Of a stretch of 46,201 bases of DNA, positions 10,009 to 18,830 are shown piece by piece. The DNA is taken from contig JAGVYS010000005.1 of assembly GCA_018303125.1 (NCBI GenBank), positions 1 to 46,201 on the forward strand. The letters run 5' to 3'. The notes under the pieces are model-generated. The model had not been told where the DNA came from. It did not search any database and saw nothing but the letters and a program-made list of their open reading frames with translations. Position numbers and translations under genes: made by a program. Numbering within the stretch: position 1 is the first letter of the stretch; the number at the start of each line of letters is the position of its first letter. The DNA is from Candidatus Woesearchaeota archaeon (GTDB lineage: Archaea; Nanobdellota; Nanobdellia; Woesearchaeales; WJIZ01).

Positions 10009-11256
10009 TTAACAATCTCTTCCAACCCTTAGCAAGGCAGCCTTCCTGTGGGCATCCAATCCTTCCTGCTCAGCCAGCCTTGAGGCTACCTTAACCATGC
10101 TGGCAGGAACTTTTCCATCAATCTTCTGGTACGTAACAATCTTGACAAAATCCCTGACAGATAACCCGCCAGTATACCTTGCAGCTCCGTTCGTAGGCAG
10201 GATGTGGTTTGTTCCGGTGCAATAGTCTCCGAAGACCTCTGCAGCATTATCTCCTATGAATAGTGAGCCATAATTTTTCAGCATAAGCCTCTCTGGATTT
10301 TTGACATGCAGCTCAAGGTGCTCAGGCGATTTCATGTCTGATATCTTAGCGCAGTCCTCAAGGCTCTGTGCTATTATGATTCTCCCGTTTTGCAGGGCTG
10401 CAGCTGCAATATCCCTTGTCTTAAGCTTCTGAAGCTGCATTTCCAGCTGATTTTGAACTTCAATTGCCAATTTTCTTGAGGTAGTCACTAAATTTGGCTG
10501 TGCCGACTTGTCATGCTCTGCCTGAGCAAGCAGGTCAGCAGCTATAAGCTCAGCCTTGCCCGTTTCATCTGCTATAATCAAAACCTCGCTTGGCCCCGCT
10601 ATGAAATCTATTCCAACCCTGCCATAAACTTCCTTCTTGGCTGCTGCAACATACTTGTTTCCGGGCCCGACTATCTTGTCAACTTTAGGTACTGATTCCG
10701 TACCGTATGCCATTGCGCCTATTGCCTGCGCTCCGCCAATATTGAATATCATATCCGCTCCCGCAATATCTGCAGCAGCAACTGTTGCAGGCTTTATCCT
10801 TGGTGAGCATACAATAATCTCTTCAACTCCTGCAATCTTGGCGGGAATTATGCTCATTAGAGCTGATGACGGCAATGGATATATACCTCCAGGCACATAG
10901 CACCCTACTCTGATCAATGGAATCACCTTCTGTCCCAAAATAACACCCTTATTGACCAAAGAAAAATCCTTTATCTGGCTCATCTGCTTCCTAGCGAAGA
11001 ATTCAATGCTTTTGGCAGCTTCTCGTAGGGCAGACAATGTTTCAGAATCAACTTTTTCGTATGCTGCGTTTATGTCTTTTCCTGTGAGCTTGAAAGGAGC
11101 AGTACCTATGTCATCGAATTTTTGAGAGTATTTCCTCAATGCGCTCTCTCCATATTTCCTTATATCAGCAAGAATCTCCCTTGCTATTTCTCCCTCATCC
11201 CCCTGCCTTGGCTCGAAAAATTCCCTGTCCAATTTATCAGCATTAACAATTATCAT
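10009..11256 (-). CDS. hisD: Histidinol dehydrogenase
   Basis: GCYVPGG, VDKIVGPGNKYV, DFIAGPSE, DLLAQAEHD, PEHLEL and GDYCTGTNHILPT. Confidence 0.96.
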   Translation of the reverse strand: MIIVNADKLDREFFEPRQGDEGEIAREILADIRKYGESALRKYSQKFDDIGTAPFKLTGKDINAAYEKVDSETLSALREAAKSIEFFARKQMSQIKDFSLVNKGVILGQKVIPLIRVGCYVPGGIYPLPSSALMSIIPAKIAGVEEIIVCSPRIKPATVAAADIAGADMIFNIGGAQAIGAMAYGTESVPKVDKIVGPGNKYVAAAKKEVYGRVGIDFIAGPSEVLIIADETGKAELIAADLLAQAEHDKSAQPNLVTTSRKLAIEVQNQLEMQLQKLKTRDIAAAALQNGRIIIAQSLEDCAKISDMKSPEHLELHVKNPERLMLKNYGSLFIGDNAAEVFGDYCTGTNHILPTNGAARYTGGLSVRDFVKIVTYQKIDGKVPASMVKVASRLAEQEGLDAHRKAALLRVGRDC

Positions 11257-12476
11257 TTTCTCCTTCCTCCGAGCTCATTCTTTATATCGTCCAAGGTTAT
11301 TCCTTTCTTTGCCATAAGGACAAGGATAAAATAAGCAAGGTCAGCTATTTCCCAGACAAGATTGTCCTTGTCTTTGTAATTTATAACTTCCATTGCCTCT
11401 TCCTTAATCTTGGCTTTTACAAGTTCCTCATCCTTTGCTATCAATGAGGTATAAGAGCCTCTTCTTGGATTCTTAATCCTGCCTGCTATAACGCTATACA
11501 ACTCTTCCATGCTGAAATCCCTTTCCCCAAAGCATGAATATTTTCCGGTGTGGCATGCAAAGTTTTTCTGGCTGACAGTGAACAGCAATACATCCCTGTC
11601 GCAGTCATACCTTGCCTTTTTCAGCACTTGGAAATTTCCTGATGTCTCACCCTTTACCCATATTTTCTTCCTGGACCTGCTATAGTAGGTTCCTTTTCCT
11701 GATTCAAGCGCCATGAGCAAAGATTTAGGATTGGAATAAGCAAGCATCATTACCTGACCGTTCTCTTCCTGCACTATGGTCGGAACAAGCCCATTGCTTT
11801 TCTTGAAATTAATCAATGAGACAAATGCTTTTCCCAGCTCAATCCTGCCTGTATAAAGCGCCATGCCAATCTGTGAATCACAGCCTAAATCCTCAAGCTG
11901 GGTTATATCATCAATTGTTGTTATCCCTCCTGCGACAGTCAGGTTTTTCTTCGTTGCCTTTCTTATTTTTTCAATTATGCCGAAATCAAGACCTTCCATC
12001 ATGCCTTCCTTGTTTACATTTGTGAATAAAAATCCTGAGCAATACCTCTCAAGCTCCTTTATTGCCTCAAAAGGTGTCTTCTTCGTTTTTTTAGTCCATC
12101 CTTCAGTTACCACATTGTCATCTTTACTGTCAATAGCAACAATTACCTTGCCGGCAGGAAGCTTCTTCAGGAATTCCGGAGAGGCTTTTGTACCTATGAT
12201 TATTTTTTTGGCGCCATATTTCAAAATCTCTTCTGCCTTATCTTGGCTCCTTATCCCACCTCCGACTCTGCAGTCTGCAATCTTGCATATTTCCTTTATT
12301 AGTCCAGAATTATTTCCCTTGCCTAAAGCTGCATCTAAGTCAATGACAGCAATTTCCCCATACCTGGAAAACTCCCTGGCAAACTGCATGACATTGCTGC
12401 GCTCAAGTACCTTTTCCCTTCCTTGCCTAAGCTGCACAGCCTTTCCATCCATTAGGTCAATGCTCGGTATTATCAT
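11253..12476 (-). CDS. hisAIE: HisA-HisI-HisE fusion (ProFAR isomerase / PR-AMP cyclohydrolase / PR-ATP pyrophosphatase)
   Basis: N-terminal [21 protein letters not shown] and VGGGIRS (HisA). [14 protein letters not shown] and [10 protein letters not shown] (HisI). [12 protein letters not shown] and EIADLAY (HisE). Confidence 0.92.
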
Positions 12477-13225
12477 TTTCTTACCTCAATTCCTTTTTTC
12501 CCAAGATATTCCTTTACGTTGAGTATAGAGTATGTGCTATAATGGAATATTGACGCTGCCAGTGCAGCATCTGCTTTTCCTTTTATGAAAACATCTGCAA
12601 AGCTTTCTAAATTACCCGCTCCGCCGGAAGCAATGACAGGTATACTGACATTCTCCGAGATTATCTGCGTAAGCTCAAGCTCATAGCCTTCTTTTGTCCC
12701 ATCTCTGTCCATGGATGTCAACAAGAGTTCCCCTGCACCGAGCTTCTCTGCTTCCTTAGCCCATTCAAGTGCGGAAATGCCTGTTGGCTCCTTTCCACTC
12801 TTTATGAAAACCTCATATCTCCCGTTTATTTTTTTGGCATCTATTGCAACTGTTATGCATTGGCTGCCAAATTTTTCAGAGGCTTCCCTCAAAAGGCTTG
12901 GATTTTTCACAGCAGCTGTGTTTATTGAAACCTTGTCTGCGCCTGCTATAAGCAAATTTCTTATGTCATCAATGGAGCTTATTCCCCCGCCTACTGTAAA
13001 AGGGATGAATATTTCCTTTGCAACCTCTTTTACAAGCGATGTGGTTTTCCTTTTTTCAGATGATGCAGTTATGTCAAGGAAAACAAGCTCATCGGCACCT
13101 TCCTCATTGTATCTCTTGGCTAATTCTACGGCATCGCCTGCCTGCTTAAGATCTAAAAAGTTCCTTCCTTTCACTACCTTCCCTTCCTTAACATCAAGGC
13201 AAGGTATTATCCTTTTAGTAAGCAT
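12473..13225 (-). CDS. hisF: Imidazole glycerol phosphate synthase cyclase subunit
   Basis: [35 protein letters not shown] and PVIASGGAG. Start at 13225 after GAGGTGG. Confidence 0.96.
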
Positions 13226-13799
13226 CAAGCCACCTCTGCAGCAGCGCAATGCCTGAACTACCACTTTTTTCAGGGTGGAATTGCACAGCTGTAACATTCT
13301 TATCCTGGATTGCGCATGCAAATTCTCCATAATAATCCGTGACTGCAGCTATTATGCCTTTTTGCCCTGGTTTTACATAATATGAATTGACGAAATAAAA
13401 AAAATCCTCCTCAAAAATTCCTTTTTTTGCAGGCGTTATGCTATTCCATCCTATCTGAGGCACTTTTCCTTTCCTGAACCTTACTGACTTGCCATTGTAT
13501 ATCCCGAGCCCTTTTACTCCGACACTTTCATCGCTTTCCTCAAAGAGCGCCTGCATGCCCAGGCATATTCCAAGGAAAGGCTTTCCAGAGGCAATTGAAT
13601 TCCTAATCGGCTCTGCAATGCCTTTCTCCCTCAGGTTCTGCATCATGAATCCAAATGCTCCTACTCCAGGTAGTACTATTCTTTCTGCATCAAGTATTGC
13701 ATCCGGGGTGCCAACTATCATAGACTCTGCTTTAAGGTAATCAAAAGCGTTCTTTACGCTGCTTAGGTTTCCTATTCCGCAATCCACTATGGCTATCAT
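13215..13799 (-). CDS. hisH: Imidazole glycerol phosphate synthase glutaminase subunit
   Basis: [21 protein letters not shown] and QFHPEKS. Confidence 0.95.
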
Positions 13800-14383
13800 A
13801 TCATTCCTTTTGTGCTTGGCACATCCTCCATTGCCCTCTTATCAGTTGAGCATGCCATCTTGGCTGCCTTCCCGAATGCCTTGAATATTGCCTCTATCTT
13901 GTGGTGGTCGCTTCTGCCATATAGCATCCTGACAACAACATTTGCCCCTAGGCCTATGGAAAATCCATAGAAAAAATCCTCAAGAACATCAGTGTCGAAA
14001 TCGCCGCAATATCTTCTGCCAAATTTTGCATCGTACTGTAGGTATGGCCTGCCGCCTATGTCTAGGGCTACAACTGCCAAAGACTCATCCATCGGGTAAA
14101 TAAAATATCCTGTCCTGTTTATCCCTTTCTTGTCTCCAAGCGCTTTCCCGAGTGCCTGGCCCAATACAATCCCTGTATCCTCTATAGTGTGATGCTGGTC
14201 GACTTTTAAATCTCCTCTCACTTTGATTTCAGTGTCAAACAATGAAAATTTTGAGAAGCTTTCAAGCATGTGCGAGAAAAATCCTATCTCAGTATCAACA
14301 GAGTATTTTCCCTTGCCATCAATATTAAGCTCAACGCTTATTCTTGTTTCTTTAGTTTCCCTGCTTATTTTGGCTTTCCTCAT
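13796..14383 (-). CDS. hisB: Imidazoleglycerol-phosphate dehydratase
   Basis: RETKETRI, DQHHTIEDTG, PMDES, DHHKIEAIFKA and PSTKG. Confidence 0.96.
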   Translation of the reverse strand: MRKAKISRETKETRISVELNIDGKGKYSVDTEIGFFSHMLESFSKFSLFDTEIKVRGDLKVDQHHTIEDTGIVLGQALGKALGDKKGINRTGYFIYPMDESLAVVALDIGGRPYLQYDAKFGRRYCGDFDTDVLEDFFYGFSIGLGANVVVRMLYGRSDHHKIEAIFKAFGKAAKMACSTDKRAMEDVPSTKGMI

Positions 14384-16698
14384 TTTAGCACCTCTGGTAT
14401 CTGGTTTATATCAGAAATAACCTTTATTGCACCGTTCTTGACAAGCAATTCTTTTAGAGATTTGGAATTTGTGTCTGAAGGAATTACTCCTATGGCCTTT
14501 ATCCCTGCACTCTTCGCAGCCTTCATGTCATCAACACTGTCCCCAATATAAACAGCATTGCTCCTGCCAATTCTATCCAGTGCCATGCTTATGCTGCATG
14601 GGTCTGGCTTTGATTTATTTTCAGGATAATCTTCCATCGCTATTATTGTATCAAAGTACTGCTCCATGCCAAATTTCTCAAGTATATATCGGGCCTCCTC
14701 TCTTGGCCTACCTGTAACTATGCCAAGTCTTGCTTCCTTATATAAGCTTTCAAGAACTTCTTTTGTCAGCAAGAATCTCTCATTATCTATAAGCCCCTTG
14801 TCTTCATTATCTCCCAGATAGAACTCCTGGAACTTCCTGATTATATCATCCTTGCTGCATTTGACATTCCTCTTGAGGATTACTGCTTCCGTAAGGTCCC
14901 AGTCATTATTGTAGCCACCTTTTTCCTTGAACTCCTGTATCTCTTCACGGCTTATCTCTACATTCGCAAAAAATTTGGCAGTCCTTTGTATGGCTGTCCT
15001 GTAGGAATTGCTGACATCTACCAAAACACCGTCCATATCGAACAATACCACATCCTCGGGAATTATATTCTTTATGGCTTCTATAAGCACCCTGGATTGT
15101 TCCATTGTCCCTATTCCTATCCTTATGCAATTCTTCAGCAATGGGTACGTTGACCTGTCCCTTACAAGTATGCCCCTCTCCCTGAGCTGCAGCAAAACAT
15201 AATTGCACCTCTCACCGAAATCTGCCATCATAAAATTGGCTTCGGAAGAAAATACCTTTATGCCGAGCTTTTCAAGCTCTTTCTGCACATACTGCCTGCT
15301 CTCCCTGACCTCTTCGACATAATTACTTATGAATTCCTCATCCTTCATTGCGGCGCTGGCCGCAATAAGCGCAAGGTTATTTACGCTATAAGGTGAGATG
15401 ACCTTTTCTAGATTGGTTATTATTGCCTCGCTTGATATTATGCATCCAAGTCTTAATCCTGCAAGGCCGAAAGCCTTTGAGAATGTCTGCGTAACTATTA
15501 GGTTGCTGTATTTCTCAACAAACCGCTTGCAGCTCTTTCCATAATACTGGCTATATGCCTCATCGACAAGCACTATTGCGTCCTTTGCCTTTTCCAGTAC
15601 AGATATAATGTCTTGCTCGCTTATGGTTGTGCCTGTAGGATTATTCGGGTTGACAAGAACAACAAGCTTCGTTTTATCAGTTATTTTTTCCAGCAATTTT
15701 TGAGTTGGAAAGCTCAGGTCATCATTATAAAGAACATTAGTAATGTTTGCCTCTACTATGTCTGCATAGACTTTGAACATTGTAAATGTGGGCTCAGGAA
15801 TTATTACTTCATCCCCTTTCTCGAGGAAAGTGTCCATGACAACCTTTATTGCTTCGTCCGTTCCATTTGTAGGCAATACATTCTTGCTCCCAGTATCCAA
15901 ATACAATGCAAGTTCCTTCCTGAAATTACCATAATCGGGGTACATGCAAATGTCCTCGACAGAAATATCCCTTAGTGCATCCAGCACTTTTGGTGAGCAT
16001 CCAGAGGTATTTTCATTAAAATCAAGGCGCAGCTTGCCTCTCCTGTCAGAGGTTGGCGGCTCGTACTTGCTCATTTTCTGCACTGCCTCCTTCGGCATTA
16101 TGGAATTTCCAGAAGAATCAGCGCCTATTACGAGGAAATCGCTCTGCATTATTACATCGTACGCTTTTAGATTATACTTTATTAGAGAGCTTCCTGTATA
16201 GACTATATCGATTATTAAGTCAGCTATTCCTTCGCTGCAGCTTGTCTCAACGCAACCATTGATGTAAATCTTCTTGAATGAGAAGCCTTTCCTCTCAAGG
16301 AAATTAAGGTATTTTTTGGCCAATTTCTTGTATTTGGAGGCTATGCACACTGTCAAATCTCTTGGCATTGTTTCAAGGCTTTTTCCTTCTGGCCCTATTA
16401 GGCAGAGTGTTGGCTTGCCATAGATGGCAGAAGGGTCATCCCACGCAATTCTCTTGATTACCTTAAGTTGAGATTCCTTGTTTTCGAGGCAGTATTCCCT
16501 GAACAAGTCTTCTCCAGTTAGGCCAAAGGCATTCTTGCCTTTATTGAGAAATTGCTTTACTAGGAATGGTATGTCCTCTCCCCTTGCTTCTATAAGCCTT
16601 GTGTCCTTTACATCCTTAAAATAAGATAATGCCGATTCCCTATAACTTCTTAGCCCGGAATTTTTTGGAACCAAGATGAATACAACCACCACTTTCAA
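14380..16698 (-). CDS. hisG-hisC: Triple fusion: short-form ATP phosphoribosyltransferase (HisG) + histidinol-phosphate aminotransferase (HisC) + HAD-family (histidinol-)phosphatase; start uncertain
   Basis: HisG: ILVPK, RGEDIP, GLTGEDL, ASKY, ADLIIDIVYTG. HisC: LDFNEN, NPNNPTG, DEAY, TFSKAFGLAGLRLG. HAD: FDMDGVLVD, KSKPDP, YIGDSVDD. The frame has no ATG start (only TTG 16698, GTG 16692/16689), with TGA at 16713-16711. Confidence 0.9.
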   Translation of the reverse strand: MKVVVVFILVPKNSGLRSYRESALSYFKDVKDTRLIEARGEDIPFLVKQFLNKGKNAFGLTGEDLFREYCLENKESQLKVIKRIAWDDPSAIYGKPTLCLIGPEGKSLETMPRDLTVCIASKYKKLAKKYLNFLERKGFSFKKIYINGCVETSCSEGIADLIIDIVYTGSSLIKYNLKAYDVIMQSDFLVIGADSSGNSIMPKEAVQKMSKYEPPTSDRRGKLRLDFNENTSGCSPKVLDALRDISVEDICMYPDYGNFRKELALYLDTGSKNVLPTNGTDEAIKVVMDTFLEKGDEVIIPEPTFTMFKVYADIVEANITNVLYNDDLSFPTQKLLEKITDKTKLVVLVNPNNPTGTTISEQDIISVLEKAKDAIVLVDEAYSQYYGKSCKRFVEKYSNLIVTQTFSKAFGLAGLRLGCIISSEAIITNLEKVISPYSVNNLALIAASAAMKDEEFISNYVEEVRESRQYVQKELEKLGIKVFSSEANFMMADFGERCNYVLLQLRERGILVRDRSTYPLLKNCIRIGIGTMEQSRVLIEAIKNIIPEDVVLFDMDGVLVDVSNSYRTAIQRTAKFFANVEISREEIQEFKEKGGYNNDWDLTEAVILKRNVKCSKDDIIRKFQEFYLGDNEDKGLIDNERFLLTKEVLESLYKEARLGIVTGRPREEARYILEKFGMEQYFDTIIAMEDYPENKSKPDPCSISMALDRIGRSNAVYIGDSVDDMKAAKSAGIKAIGVIPSDTNSKSLKELLVKNGAIKVISDINQIPEVLK

Positions 16699-16714
16699 TA
16701 ATTTTTTCCATCAT
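16640..16714 (-). CDS. 24-codon upstream ORF (MMEKIIESGGCIHLGSKKFRAKKL) overlapping the hisG start in a different frame
   Basis: ATGATG preceded by SD GAGGT (16722-16718). Spacing to the second ATG matches hisB and hisF. One His codon (CAT 16678-16676). Confidence 0.45.
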   Translation of the reverse strand: MMEKIIESGGCIHLGSKKFRAKKL

Positions 16715-16743
16715 AGGACCTCTATAGAGTTTATCTTGAAAAG

Positions 16744-16815
16744 AGAGATAGAGGGGAATTGAACCCCTGCCATAGGTGCCACAGACCTATATTCTGCCGT
16801 TAAACTACTATCTCT
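16744..16815 (-). tRNA. tRNA-His(GUG), atypical acceptor end (A-1/U73), no encoded CCA
   Basis: Cloverleaf: acceptor GAGATAG/CTATCTC, D arm GTTT-AACGGCA-GAAT, anticodon arm TAGGT-CTGTGGC-ACCTA, T arm AGGGG-TTCAATT-CCCCT. Confidence 0.85.
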
Positions 16816-16943
16816 ATCTGTGAGCCTGAAAAAATTATTAAATGATTTAAGAATAGTTCTACCTATAATGAATACAACCAGCGCTTACTACTGCCTTAGC
16901 CTCTGTGATAACTAATTTCATAGCATTATGGTAATGGTGAGGG

Positions 16944-17822
16944 TTATTTAAAGCTTTCTATGGCCTCAGCAAACAATCCGGCTACATCAATCTTCGCTGC
17001 AGGATTAGGTATGGAATTTGTGGTCACTACCTCTGCACCTGTTTTCTTCAGCTTTCCTAGAGCCCCTTCAGCAAAAATACCGTGAATTGCTATGCATGTT
17101 ACCTTTCTGACGCCAAGTGCCTTGAGCTTAATGATAGTTTTAATCAGCGTATTCCCTGTTGAAATCATGTCATCTATAAGCACTATATTCTTTCCCTTGG
17201 TGTCTACTTTTTCCTGGAACCTCACATCAACATTCCTGGCAGAATGCCTTGTCTTAAGTAAAATAGTGGATTCACATCCTATTATTTCTGCAGTTTTTCT
17301 TGCCCATTTATACGATTCCCAGTCAGGTCCTACTATAAGTGGCTTCTTGACATTTTTCCTTATATGTTCCCCTATCAATGGGTTTGCCGTTAGCCTTTTT
17401 GATTCAACTGAAAATATATGCCCCAGAGATTTCTCCCTGTGAAGATGCGGGTCAAGTATGCATACCCTGTCAACTATGTTATTCATTATCTTGCCGAGGA
17501 AATGGATTGAAGGTATTTCGCCTTTGCTGAACCATGTATCCTGCCTGAAATAAGGGAAATAAGGAGACAGCAAAGTAATTTCTGAGGCGCCCATCTCCTT
17601 CGCTGCCTTTGAGGCAAACATTACCTCTAAAAGGCAAGAGTCAATATCACCATAGAAAGACTGGACAAGATACACTTTCCTGCCCTTCAAGCCAGTCTTC
17701 AGAAATTTTATATGGAGCTCATTGTCGGGAAATTTCTCAACAAAAAGCTCAGAATATGGCATCTTTGCTTTGGCTGCTATTCTGCGCGCAATATGTTTTC
17801 CGTGTGAGCAGGATATAATCAT
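16944..17822 (-). CDS. prs: Ribose-phosphate pyrophosphokinase
   Basis: KFPDNE, PYFPYFRQD, LDPHLH, VGPDWES, VLIDDMISTGNT and TTNSIP. Confidence 0.93.
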   Translation of the reverse strand: MIISCSHGKHIARRIAAKAKMPYSELFVEKFPDNELHIKFLKTGLKGRKVYLVQSFYGDIDSCLLEVMFASKAAKEMGASEITLLSPYFPYFRQDTWFSKGEIPSIHFLGKIMNNIVDRVCILDPHLHREKSLGHIFSVESKRLTANPLIGEHIRKNVKKPLIVGPDWESYKWARKTAEIIGCESTILLKTRHSARNVDVRFQEKVDTKGKNIVLIDDMISTGNTLIKTIIKLKALGVRKVTCIAIHGIFAEGALGKLKKTGAEVVTTNSIPNPAAKIDVAGLFAEAIESFK

Positions 17823-18065: not shown

Positions 18066-18830
18066 TTAGCTTAGACCAGAAAAAATAGATTTCCAGAAAG
18101 GTTTCTTTTTGCAATATGAACATGTAAAGATTAGGTCTTCTTTCAACTGGAGATTCTTTACTTCAGTAAAACTCGCCATACGTTCCAATAATCTCTCTTT
18201 AGGGCAAATAACATTGCCTGACTTCCAACTAAGATCCGTGTTAGAGCAATATCCAGTTAATGTATCGCAAAATACACCAGGTTCCACTTCTTGGATAATG
18301 TCTTCTCCCTTGGGATTTTTATAATAAAGGAGTTTAAAGTCATGTACAAGCGTGATAGCGATTAAGTCATGGCCTTTCACTGCCTGACATGCGCTATTGA
18401 TTTCATTTATGCATTGCTGAATCGTATTAGGGTCATTGCCATCCTGGTTTGGGCATACGCTGCTTTTCACTTTTGGCGTGGCCGCCTTACACTGCTCGGC
18501 AACTCTACAGTCCGCATCATTGCAGTCAACTGCGCCGTCCATGTCGTTATCCTCACCATCGCTACATTCTTCGAGTATGTCTGTTCCACTTGAGCAATAT
18601 CTGGAGCTATAGCAATCGGAGTCATCGCAATCCGTCCTGTAATCAGCATCATTATCTATTTCGTCATTGCAGATTTCTATTTCTGCATAACTAGCGTATT
18701 CCTTCAGCGAATCAGCTGCTATGTCTTTTCCCTGGCTATACGCTTCCCCTGTAGGATTAACATTGCCGCTACATCCAGCTACAATAAGAAAAAGAAACGC
18801 CATTGAAAACCATAAATAACACCTTGACAT
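18066..18830 (-). CDS. Putative lipoprotein with two Cys/Asp-rich Ca-binding-like repeats
   Basis: Lipobox IVAGC. Repeats EICNDEIDNDADYRTDCDDSDC and EECSDGEDNDMDGAVDCNDADC. Confidence 0.7.
   Translation of the reverse strand: MSRCYLWFSMAFLFLIVAGCSGNVNPTGEAYSQGKDIAADSLKEYASYAEIEICNDEIDNDADYRTDCDDSDCYSSRYCSSGTDILEECSDGEDNDMDGAVDCNDADCRVAEQCKAATPKVKSSVCPNQDGNDPNTIQQCINEINSACQAVKGHDLIAITLVHDFKLLYYKNPKGEDIIQEVEPGVFCDTLTGYCSNTDLSWKSGNVICPKERLLERMASFTEVKNLQLKEDLIFTCSYCKKKPFWKSIFSGLS

Follow-up and report, generated by a model that had tools for sequence, protein, structure and literature searches.

The hisG-hisC-HAD gene of a tiny groundwater-dwelling Candidatus Woesearchaeota archaeon lies in the +1 frame of a short leader reading frame and lacks an ATG of its own. 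The gene belongs to a complete histidine biosynthesis (his) operon on the minus strand of a 46,201-nucleotide (nt) stretch of contig JAGVYS010000005.1, here called the window; all coordinates are positions within the window and all calls are on its minus strand. As judged from the sequence and its conservation in relatives, HisG-HisC-HAD is probably a trans-frame protein, produced by ribosomes that start on the leader and shift by +1 at its single His codon (shift site 2), with the other genes of the operon probably following via stop/start overlaps. We infer that the shift depends on the charging of tRNA-His.

Anatomy of the hisG leader

The leader next to hisG (leader 2), translated as MMEKIIESGGCIHLGSKKFRAKKL, opens at an ATG behind a Shine-Dalgarno (SD) sequence and contains one His codon, CAT 16678-16676, with its stop codon 12 codons beyond. 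Relative to this leader, hisG occupies the +1 frame; TGA 16713-16711 closes that frame, which offers only TTG 16698, GTG 16692, and GTG 16689 as candidate starts. Its conserved ILVPK strand starts at ATC 16677-16675, overlapping the CAT; reading ATTC as a single step joins leader 2 to ILVPKNSGL. The proposed site comprises an SD-like GGTGGT (16690-16685), followed by TGT (16684-16682), ATT (16681-16679), and CAT in the ribosomal exit (E), peptidyl (P), and aminoacyl (A) sites, respectively. The hisG-hisC-HAD frame runs for 772 codons to 14380, with Pfam domains for HisG, aminotransferase class I/II, and HAD.

An earlier note on this DNA had described the same anatomy—that is, an out-of-frame SD-ATG, hisG in +1 without an ATG, and ILVPK overlapping the CAT—and had proposed that a +1 frameshift leads into hisG. 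The anatomy is confirmed by the sequence, and the frameshift is supported comparatively by the conserved layout of the site, by one-base fusions in some orthologs, and by relatives that have no in-frame start.

Conservation of the site

The comparison drew on 24 genome loci and 79 metagenome loci carrying hisG. The 5′ end of hisG and an anchor at the conserved Pro-Lys/Asn-Asn were present in 91 loci; three rows lacked the anchor, and N-terminally truncated rows were dropped. Distinct 5′ regions numbered 78, including 75 with at least 130 nt upstream. The gene is uncommon in the order, being found in 24 of 301 sampled genomes, and a single-protein search of genome contigs returned one relative only (L055).

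TTC-A-Y was found in the hisG frame in 61 of the 78 regions, which corresponds to NTT-CAY one base back. The stricter motif G[AG]N-NNN-NTT-CAY adjoins hisG in 57 of the 75 loci, and its density is 3.9/kb in the 400 nt upstream of hisG versus 0.20/kb elsewhere in the same loci. The layout of the site exceeds chance. Genome-wide, the strict motif has seven matches; the five besides the two sites at this locus stand in unrelated contexts, at least two of them clearly within long open reading frames (ORFs), and look like chance matches.

The commonest class comprises 46 loci, in which the P-site codon is ATT (33), CTT (12), or GTT (1) and the A-site codon is CAT (43) or CAC (3). In this class, all three codon positions are conserved from −9 to +8, and further downstream only the third positions of hisG vary. 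The invariance of the NTT-CAY core (46/46) is partly circular, because the rows were selected by that motif. Overall, nucleotide conservation of the site goes further than its coding role demands, as is expected of recoding signals. The candidate SD-like element is mostly [AG]GTGAT-like (G at −8 in 34 and T at −7 in 41 of the 46 loci) and weak in others; the 16S rRNA, including its 3′ end, was not found in the assembly. The genome encodes tRNA-Ile(GAT), tRNA-Leu(GAG), and tRNA-Val(GAC), and NTT is followed by C at the site throughout. At NTT-C, the P-site tRNA can re-pair in the +1 frame, and we infer that this pairing takes place. A quadruplet-reading tRNA was considered and rejected, the P-site codon being variable (ATT, CTT, TTT, GTT).

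Orthologous leaders, the comparison of which the earlier note had put forward as a check, keep the out-of-frame SD-ATG, the NTT-CAY, and the +1 relation across the Woesearchaeota-type clade.

Frame relations and missing starts

In a blind frame test, the strongest SD (at least 5 nt)-ATG in the 120 nt before the conserved Pro codon was chosen irrespective of frame. Among the 57 site-bearing loci, 35 need a +1 shift to reach hisG and 0 need −1; five are in frame and 17 have no such start. As to the five, L085 has an intervening stop codon, L092, L095, and L103 have an ATG at the +1 codon, and L052 is distant. Among the 18 site-less loci, 12 are in frame and one needs +1. The site-bearing loci thus show the general hallmark of recoding, namely two overlapping ORFs with the downstream functional one in +1.

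In 13 of 61 loci, the hisG frame has no ATG, GTG, or TTG between the last stop codon and TTC (L039, L043, L049, L055, L061, L066, L067, L083, L084, L099, L105, L117, and L124, with L049 and L124 being distant or doubtful). In L066, a TAG stands immediately before TTC. A same-family genome (G005, locus L008) also has no canonical in-frame start, and its site 2 matches that of L055. The +1 codon is ACT, a non-start, in L039, L059, L083, and L099; L039, L083, and L099 fit neither of the two alternative start models discussed below, unless CTG is counted as a start.

Natural one-base fusions

Ten of 66 orthologs are site-less and are scattered among the 56 site-bearing ones, which corresponds to eight changes on the tree, at least four of them forced by starred branches. 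An in-frame SD-ATG opens these site-less orthologs, whose N-terminal sequences agree with the leader-frame peptides found in relatives. In L036, for example, the protein begins MINTQDYI-IVVPKN, and in its sister L069 (SH-like approximate likelihood ratio test, 99) the leader reads MINSRGCI and is followed by IVVPKN in the hisG frame. The sole indel between ATG and CCA in the DNA alignment of the two is one base (ATTC/AT-C). Likewise, L123, which groups with the clade of the present locus, has one base fewer than this locus, L032, and L033 between the aligned ATG and CCA. Orthologs fused in one frame, a further hallmark of recoding, are thus represented by L036 versus L069 and L123 versus this locus, and also by L034/L057 and L091/L110. 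Because of these natural one-base fusions, leader and hisG are to be regarded as one gene.

The earlier note had held that orthologs with an in-frame ATG and no conserved His codon would speak against a frameshift. Site-less orthologs with an in-frame ATG, fused by one base fewer, do exist; the site and its His codon are kept in 57 of 75 loci.

The upstream site and the tRNA-His gene

A second copy of the site (site 1) lies in a 20-codon mini-ORF (leader 1) further upstream, the two copies forming a 19-nt direct repeat (16868-16886 and 16676-16694, 89% identical). Each of the two leaders contains one His codon. A TATA-like box is centered ~27 nt ahead of the leader-1 ATG, and a leaderless transcript is therefore probable. 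Among relatives, a TATA-like hexamer was found at −36 to −18 of 40 of 53 leader-1 ATGs, versus 35 of 1060 random windows. Leader-1 homologues (..EAKA..AGCIH..) occur in L036, L037, L041, L044, L056, L061, and L069; leader 1 was also observed upstream of distant long-form hisG genes having a normal in-frame ATG.

Between the two leaders lies a tRNA-His gene, the sole one among the 38 tRNAs detected in this genome, which is 94.7% complete. From site 1, the +1 frame stays open through this gene, and the TGA that closes the frame overlaps the ATGATG of leader 2. The same relation, with the site-1 +1 frame open through the tRNA, holds in 12 of the 26 loci with a site upstream of the tRNA, these being the present locus, L032, L033, L034, L036, L037, L056, L057, L061, L069, L099, and L123. 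The site-to-tRNA distances in these loci (20, 59, 62, 83, 98, 101, 122, 161, and 164 nt) are all 2 mod 3, and the +1 frame therefore falls in the open phase of the tRNA, which is the sole open phase in 11 of the 12 loci and one of two in L032. We know of no description of a tRNA gene inside a conditionally translated frame.

A T-run immediately follows the tRNA (T4 here, T5-T7 in relatives), and the SD sequence comes next. In relatives, the SD-ATG lies 6-40 nt beyond the tRNA; this proximity argues for co-transcription, and thereby for post-transcriptional control. The Rfam scan of 16500-17100 gave the tRNA as the only match, with no His_leader or T-box match found at the locus, and no terminator or antiterminator hairpins were found, T-runs only being seen. 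A 15-nt inverted repeat (16694-16708 and 16828-16842, 93% complementary), the 3′ arm of which corresponds to codons 2-6 of leader 2, brackets the tRNA-His gene. As a conserved processing or occluding helix, this repeat was rejected (median z 0.45 over 29 loci, none below −2, this locus −1.89).

Relatives have intron-bearing tRNAs, which places these organisms among the DPANN archaea. The tRNA upstream of hisG in L033, L084, L085, and L123 is annotated by ARAGORN as tRNA-Tyr(gta) interrupted by an intron at position 35; its location and synteny make a mis-called, intron-bearing tRNA-His gene the probable identity in all four.

Sites in series

Upstream copies of the site are present in most loci, 56 in total, each upstream of the hisG-proximal site. 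Their zero-frame tails have a median of three codons, and their +1 frames are open for a median of 34 codons versus nine for +2; the +1 frame is the longer in 50 cases and the shorter in six (Wilcoxon 5e-9, uncorrected for relatedness). In 16 of the 56, the +1 frame continues without a stop codon as the zero frame of the following site. The spacings in these cascades (52, 55, 61, 64, 73, 88, 121, 124, 193, 277, and 364 nt) are all 1 mod 3. L105 has a canonical start in neither downstream frame, and in L120 a TAG stands immediately before TTC in the middle frame. Another 16 upstream +1 frames terminate at the start codon of the cistron that follows (ATGA, TGATG, TTGA), and 21 end in His codons, as in the ..IHHHC-stop behind a leaderless MKRVDCIHCE mini-ORF; three others fit no class. 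Two of the upstream sites have ACC as the +1 codon.

Leader 1 takes distinct forms in different groups. In one clade (L039, L040, L077, L080, L081, L087-L089, L093, L094, L097, L098, L101, L102, L107, and L110), it is the leaderless 10-codon MKRVDCIHCE, the +1 frame of which is a conserved ~34-codon ORF with 2-4 terminal His codons, upstream of an intron-bearing tRNA-His; this ORF looks like a classical His-run leader reachable only via the frameshift. A group with no tRNA (L070, L072, L075, L079, L105, L111, and L120) has a leaderless MNPTFFP... mini-ORF with a second site 52-64 nt downstream and then hisG, an arrangement that would give two shifts in series on one short leader. In L045, L046, L053, L055, and L128, the site-1 +1 ORFs end in TTT CAT GGG TAG (FHG-stop), itself an NTT-CAY motif, and this ending may be a further site.

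Proposed mechanism

In the mechanism proposed for site 2, ribosomes initiating at the SD-led ATG (16714 or 16711) would translate 11-12 leader-2 codons, after which the P site would contain tRNA-Ile paired to AUU (16681-79) and the A site would present the His codon CAU (16678-76). Both codons would be read with a G-U wobble, CAU by the single tRNA-His(GUG) and NUU by a G34 tRNA. With plentiful His-tRNA-His, His would be inserted and translation would terminate 12 codons on, giving no HisG. With scarce His-tRNA-His, the A site would stand empty and the P-site tRNA would re-pair from NUU to UUC, the G34-U wobble becoming a G34-C pair, and the SD-like GGTGGT/GGTGAT one codon upstream may push the ribosome forward in the manner of prfB. 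After the shift, reading would continue as AUC-UUG-GUU-CCA, the ILVPKN of HisG.

Site 1 would act first, its +1 frame taking the ribosome, behind the polymerase, through the tRNA-His gene and the T-run to the TGA, followed by reinitiation at leader 2. Because this frame ends over the leader-2 ATG, the two sites would amount to two His checks in series. Translation through the tRNA could possibly bring about read-through of an oligo-T terminator or shield the transcript against tRNA processing. When His-tRNA is plentiful, translation would terminate in both leaders and hisG would be silent; a response in this direction would suit a biosynthetic operon.

The arrangement as a whole could be a multi-stage sensor of His-tRNA charging and the first natural hungry-codon +1 switch, with a leaderless shift at site 1, translation through the sole tRNA-His and the oligo-T terminator carrying transcription and ribosomes into the operon, and a second shift for HisG; the two to three sites in series in some relatives would make it ultrasensitive. 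This wider scheme is offered tentatively, and it may well not hold in full.

Alternative explanations

Several points weigh against a frameshift at the His codon. Re-pairing of tRNA-Ile from AUU to UUC involves a first-position U-U mismatch, and several loci have only a weak SD-like element (GCTGAT, GCTGGT, ACTGGT). The comparators are all metagenome assemblies, and the counts overstate independence because the loci are related. Furthermore, the hisG frame has a TTG or GTG 3-6 codons before TTC here and in most relatives, L038 has an ATG aligned to the TTG of this locus, and NTG occurs at −3 in 41 of the 46 loci. An SD 5-mer accompanies just 76 of the 688 first ATGs of this genome's long ORFs (background 2.8%), and SD-less starts are thus common in it.

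These last observations are the basis of an explanation without any frameshift, in which hisG starts at its own weak TTG 16698 or GTG 16692/16689 inside a translated upstream ORF, and the leader with its His codon modulates this start through occlusion, coupling, or effects on mRNA stability. L032, L033, and L037 retain the TTG, and in L032 a long upstream +1 ORF stops in a TTGA over the TTG. However, the 13 start-less loci described above, including L066 with its stop codon immediately before TTC, have no such codon to use; the site-less orthologs have fused the leader ATG by one base fewer, rather than by a change of NTG to ATG; and the mod-3 rule of the cascades is left unexplained. In addition, a ribosome waiting at CAT would mask a start located 8-20 nt upstream, so that starvation would reduce HisG, which is the wrong direction. 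The TTG/GTG start that the earlier note had allowed for is the main rival at this locus but fails for L066, L105, L055, L061, and others, and we consider it unlikely.

Alternatively, GGTGGT/GGTGAT might be an ordinary SD sequence, with hisG starting 7 nt on at the ATN codon overlapping CAT (ATC here). L092, L095, and L103 do have an ATG at that codon, behind AAGGTGAT with a 7-nt spacer. An ATG is, however, found there in only four loci overall (these three and L114). The second base of the codon is T (ATN) in 43 of the 46 loci and C (ACT, from CAC) in three, the ACT loci being, over the whole set, the four already named, and ACC occurs at two upstream sites. Such a start would stand merely three residues ahead of the conserved Pro, would ignore the strong upstream SD-ATG, and would be covered by a ribosome stalled on CAT, reducing HisG under starvation. 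This model appears very improbable.

Little credence is likewise given to the 15-19 nt repeat being an operator or RNA-binding site of a His-responsive regulator, with the frame relations incidental. Conservation at the nucleotide level in all codon positions and the presence of two or more motif copies per locus would suit an operator, but it would leave unexplained the 35:0 bias of +1 over −1, the uniformly 1 mod 3 spacings and their open frames, the one-base fusions, and the constant NTT-CAY reading in the translated frame.

Finally, a sequencing or assembly error or a decaying pseudogene has next to no probability: a single sequence alone would permit a one-base error in the A6 run of leader 2 (16707-16702), an alternative raised in the earlier note, but contigs from four other runs (X2, X3, X4, and X6; three studies) match parts of 16600-16932 with no gaps, and the same frame break is found with a full-length hisG in 56 of 66 orthologs. 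X2 spans the entire 16600-16932 and X6 covers 16673-16929; the A6 run and site 2 are covered by all four contigs, and an A5 error is thereby excluded at the contig level. Transcriptional slippage was also rejected, the site being free of homopolymers and the A6 run lacking conservation.

Relation to known systems

Among the closest known systems is the autoregulatory +1 frameshift of bacterial prfB, which encodes release factor 2. In both prfB and the frameshift proposed here, a true start opens a short zero frame, an NUU codon in the P site re-pairs forward, a slow A site reports on a translation component, and the main product is in +1; the GGTGGT one codon (3 nt) ahead of the P-site codon would be a candidate counterpart of the internal SD of prfB. 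The analogy, already drawn in the earlier note, holds for the layout (SD-like element, one-codon spacer, slippery P-site codon, slow A site) but not for the A-site codon, which is UGA in prfB and a His sense codon here; the zero frame here runs on for 2-29 codons past the site. Unlike prfB, which senses release factor, the present element would sense an aminoacyl-tRNA, occurs in archaea, and can be chained.

Hungry-codon frameshifting, as studied by Gallant and co-workers, is a starvation error familiar for decades and seen in laboratory constructs. A 2016 recoding review describes it and states that no trans-frame protein made for starvation conditions is known (PMC5009743). The proposed mechanism resembles it in that scarcity of an aminoacyl-tRNA empties the A site and the P-site tRNA slips by one base, but here it would be a conserved and utilized switch rather than a laboratory error. 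As in enterobacterial hisL (Rfam RF00514), a translated leader with a His codon stands ahead of hisG and the ribosome would report the charging of His-tRNA; unlike hisL, with its run of His codons and hairpins, each leader here has one His codon, and the read-out would be a change of frame into the structural gene. His runs (..IHHHC) are found only in the +1 ORFs of another clade, not in the leaders of this locus.

Antizyme also uses a +1 frameshift as a feedback sensor of a metabolite pathway (PMC4505036, PMC3113565). In that eukaryotic system, the A site contains a stop codon, polyamines are sensed, and the product represses the pathway, whereas here tRNA charging would be sensed and the product would enact the pathway. 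A +1 shift within the leader peptide of an amino-acid operon has been reported for pheL in E. coli at UUC_CCC_UGA; it was judged incidental, with pheA unaffected (PMC3082878), a reminder that leader frameshifting is not always put to use.

The literature search found no published His-sensing frameshift into hisG, and the main text of the GeneTack survey, supplements excepted, mentions neither histidine nor hisG (PMC3711429).

Features of the locus

The coordinates of the leader region and the operon are collected in Table 1. Two unusual fusions were observed in the operon, namely hisG-hisC-HAD phosphatase (14380-16698, 772 codons) and hisA-hisI-hisE (11253-12476, 407 codons), both on the minus strand; in most relatives, hisG is a separate gene overlapping hisC-HAD. 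A 254-codon Cys- and Asp-rich ORF with a signal-like N-terminus and no Pfam match lies at 18066-18830 on the minus strand.

Table 1. Features of the his leader region and operon, with positions in the 46,201-nt window.
Feature	Position	Strand	Basis or remark
prs (ribose-phosphate pyrophosphokinase)	16944..17822	-	Pfam; directly upstream of the his leader region
TATA-like box TTTAAATAA	16944..16952	-	Overlaps prs stop codon; putative promoter
his leader region, 230 nt	Between prs and hisG-hisC-HAD	-	Sequence reading
Leader 1 mini-ORF MKLVITEAKAVVSAGCIHYR, 20 codons	16859..16921	-	Stop TAG 16861-16859; probably leaderless
Shift site 1 (proposed), GCTGGT TGT ATT CAT	16868..16882	-	Upstream copy of the 19-nt direct repeat
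+1 frame of site 1, open 53 codons	16711..16872	-	Spans whole tRNA-His gene; ends TGA 16713-16711
tRNA-His (GTG)	16743..16814	-	Rfam tRNA match, 64 bits
Shine-Dalgarno GAGGT	16718..16722	-	Spacer 3 nt to ATG 16714-16712, 6 nt to ATG 16711-16709
Leader 2 (zero frame), ATG ATG ... CAT ... TAG	16640..16714	-	24 codons; stop TAG 16642-16640
Shift site 2 (proposed), GGTGGT SD-like, TGT E-site, ATT P-site, CAT A-site	16676..16690	-	Sequence and conservation
hisG-hisC-HAD fusion, +1 frame from ATC 16677	14380..16677	-	Frame reading and Pfam
Remaining operon: hisB, hisH, hisF, hisA-hisI-hisE fusion, hisD	10009..14383	-	Stops and starts overlapping

Implications

To our knowledge, little is understood about how archaea regulate amino-acid biosynthesis, and no sensor of the leader-peptide or T-box type has been established there. 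The element described here is only ~20 nt long and has natural on and off variants. If the site works as read, standard gene callers mis-start hisG in these genomes. Overall, if the proposed mechanism is true, the his leader would be a direct, ribosome-based sensor of aminoacyl-tRNA, operating without an RNA switch or a regulator protein and widespread in DPANN archaea.

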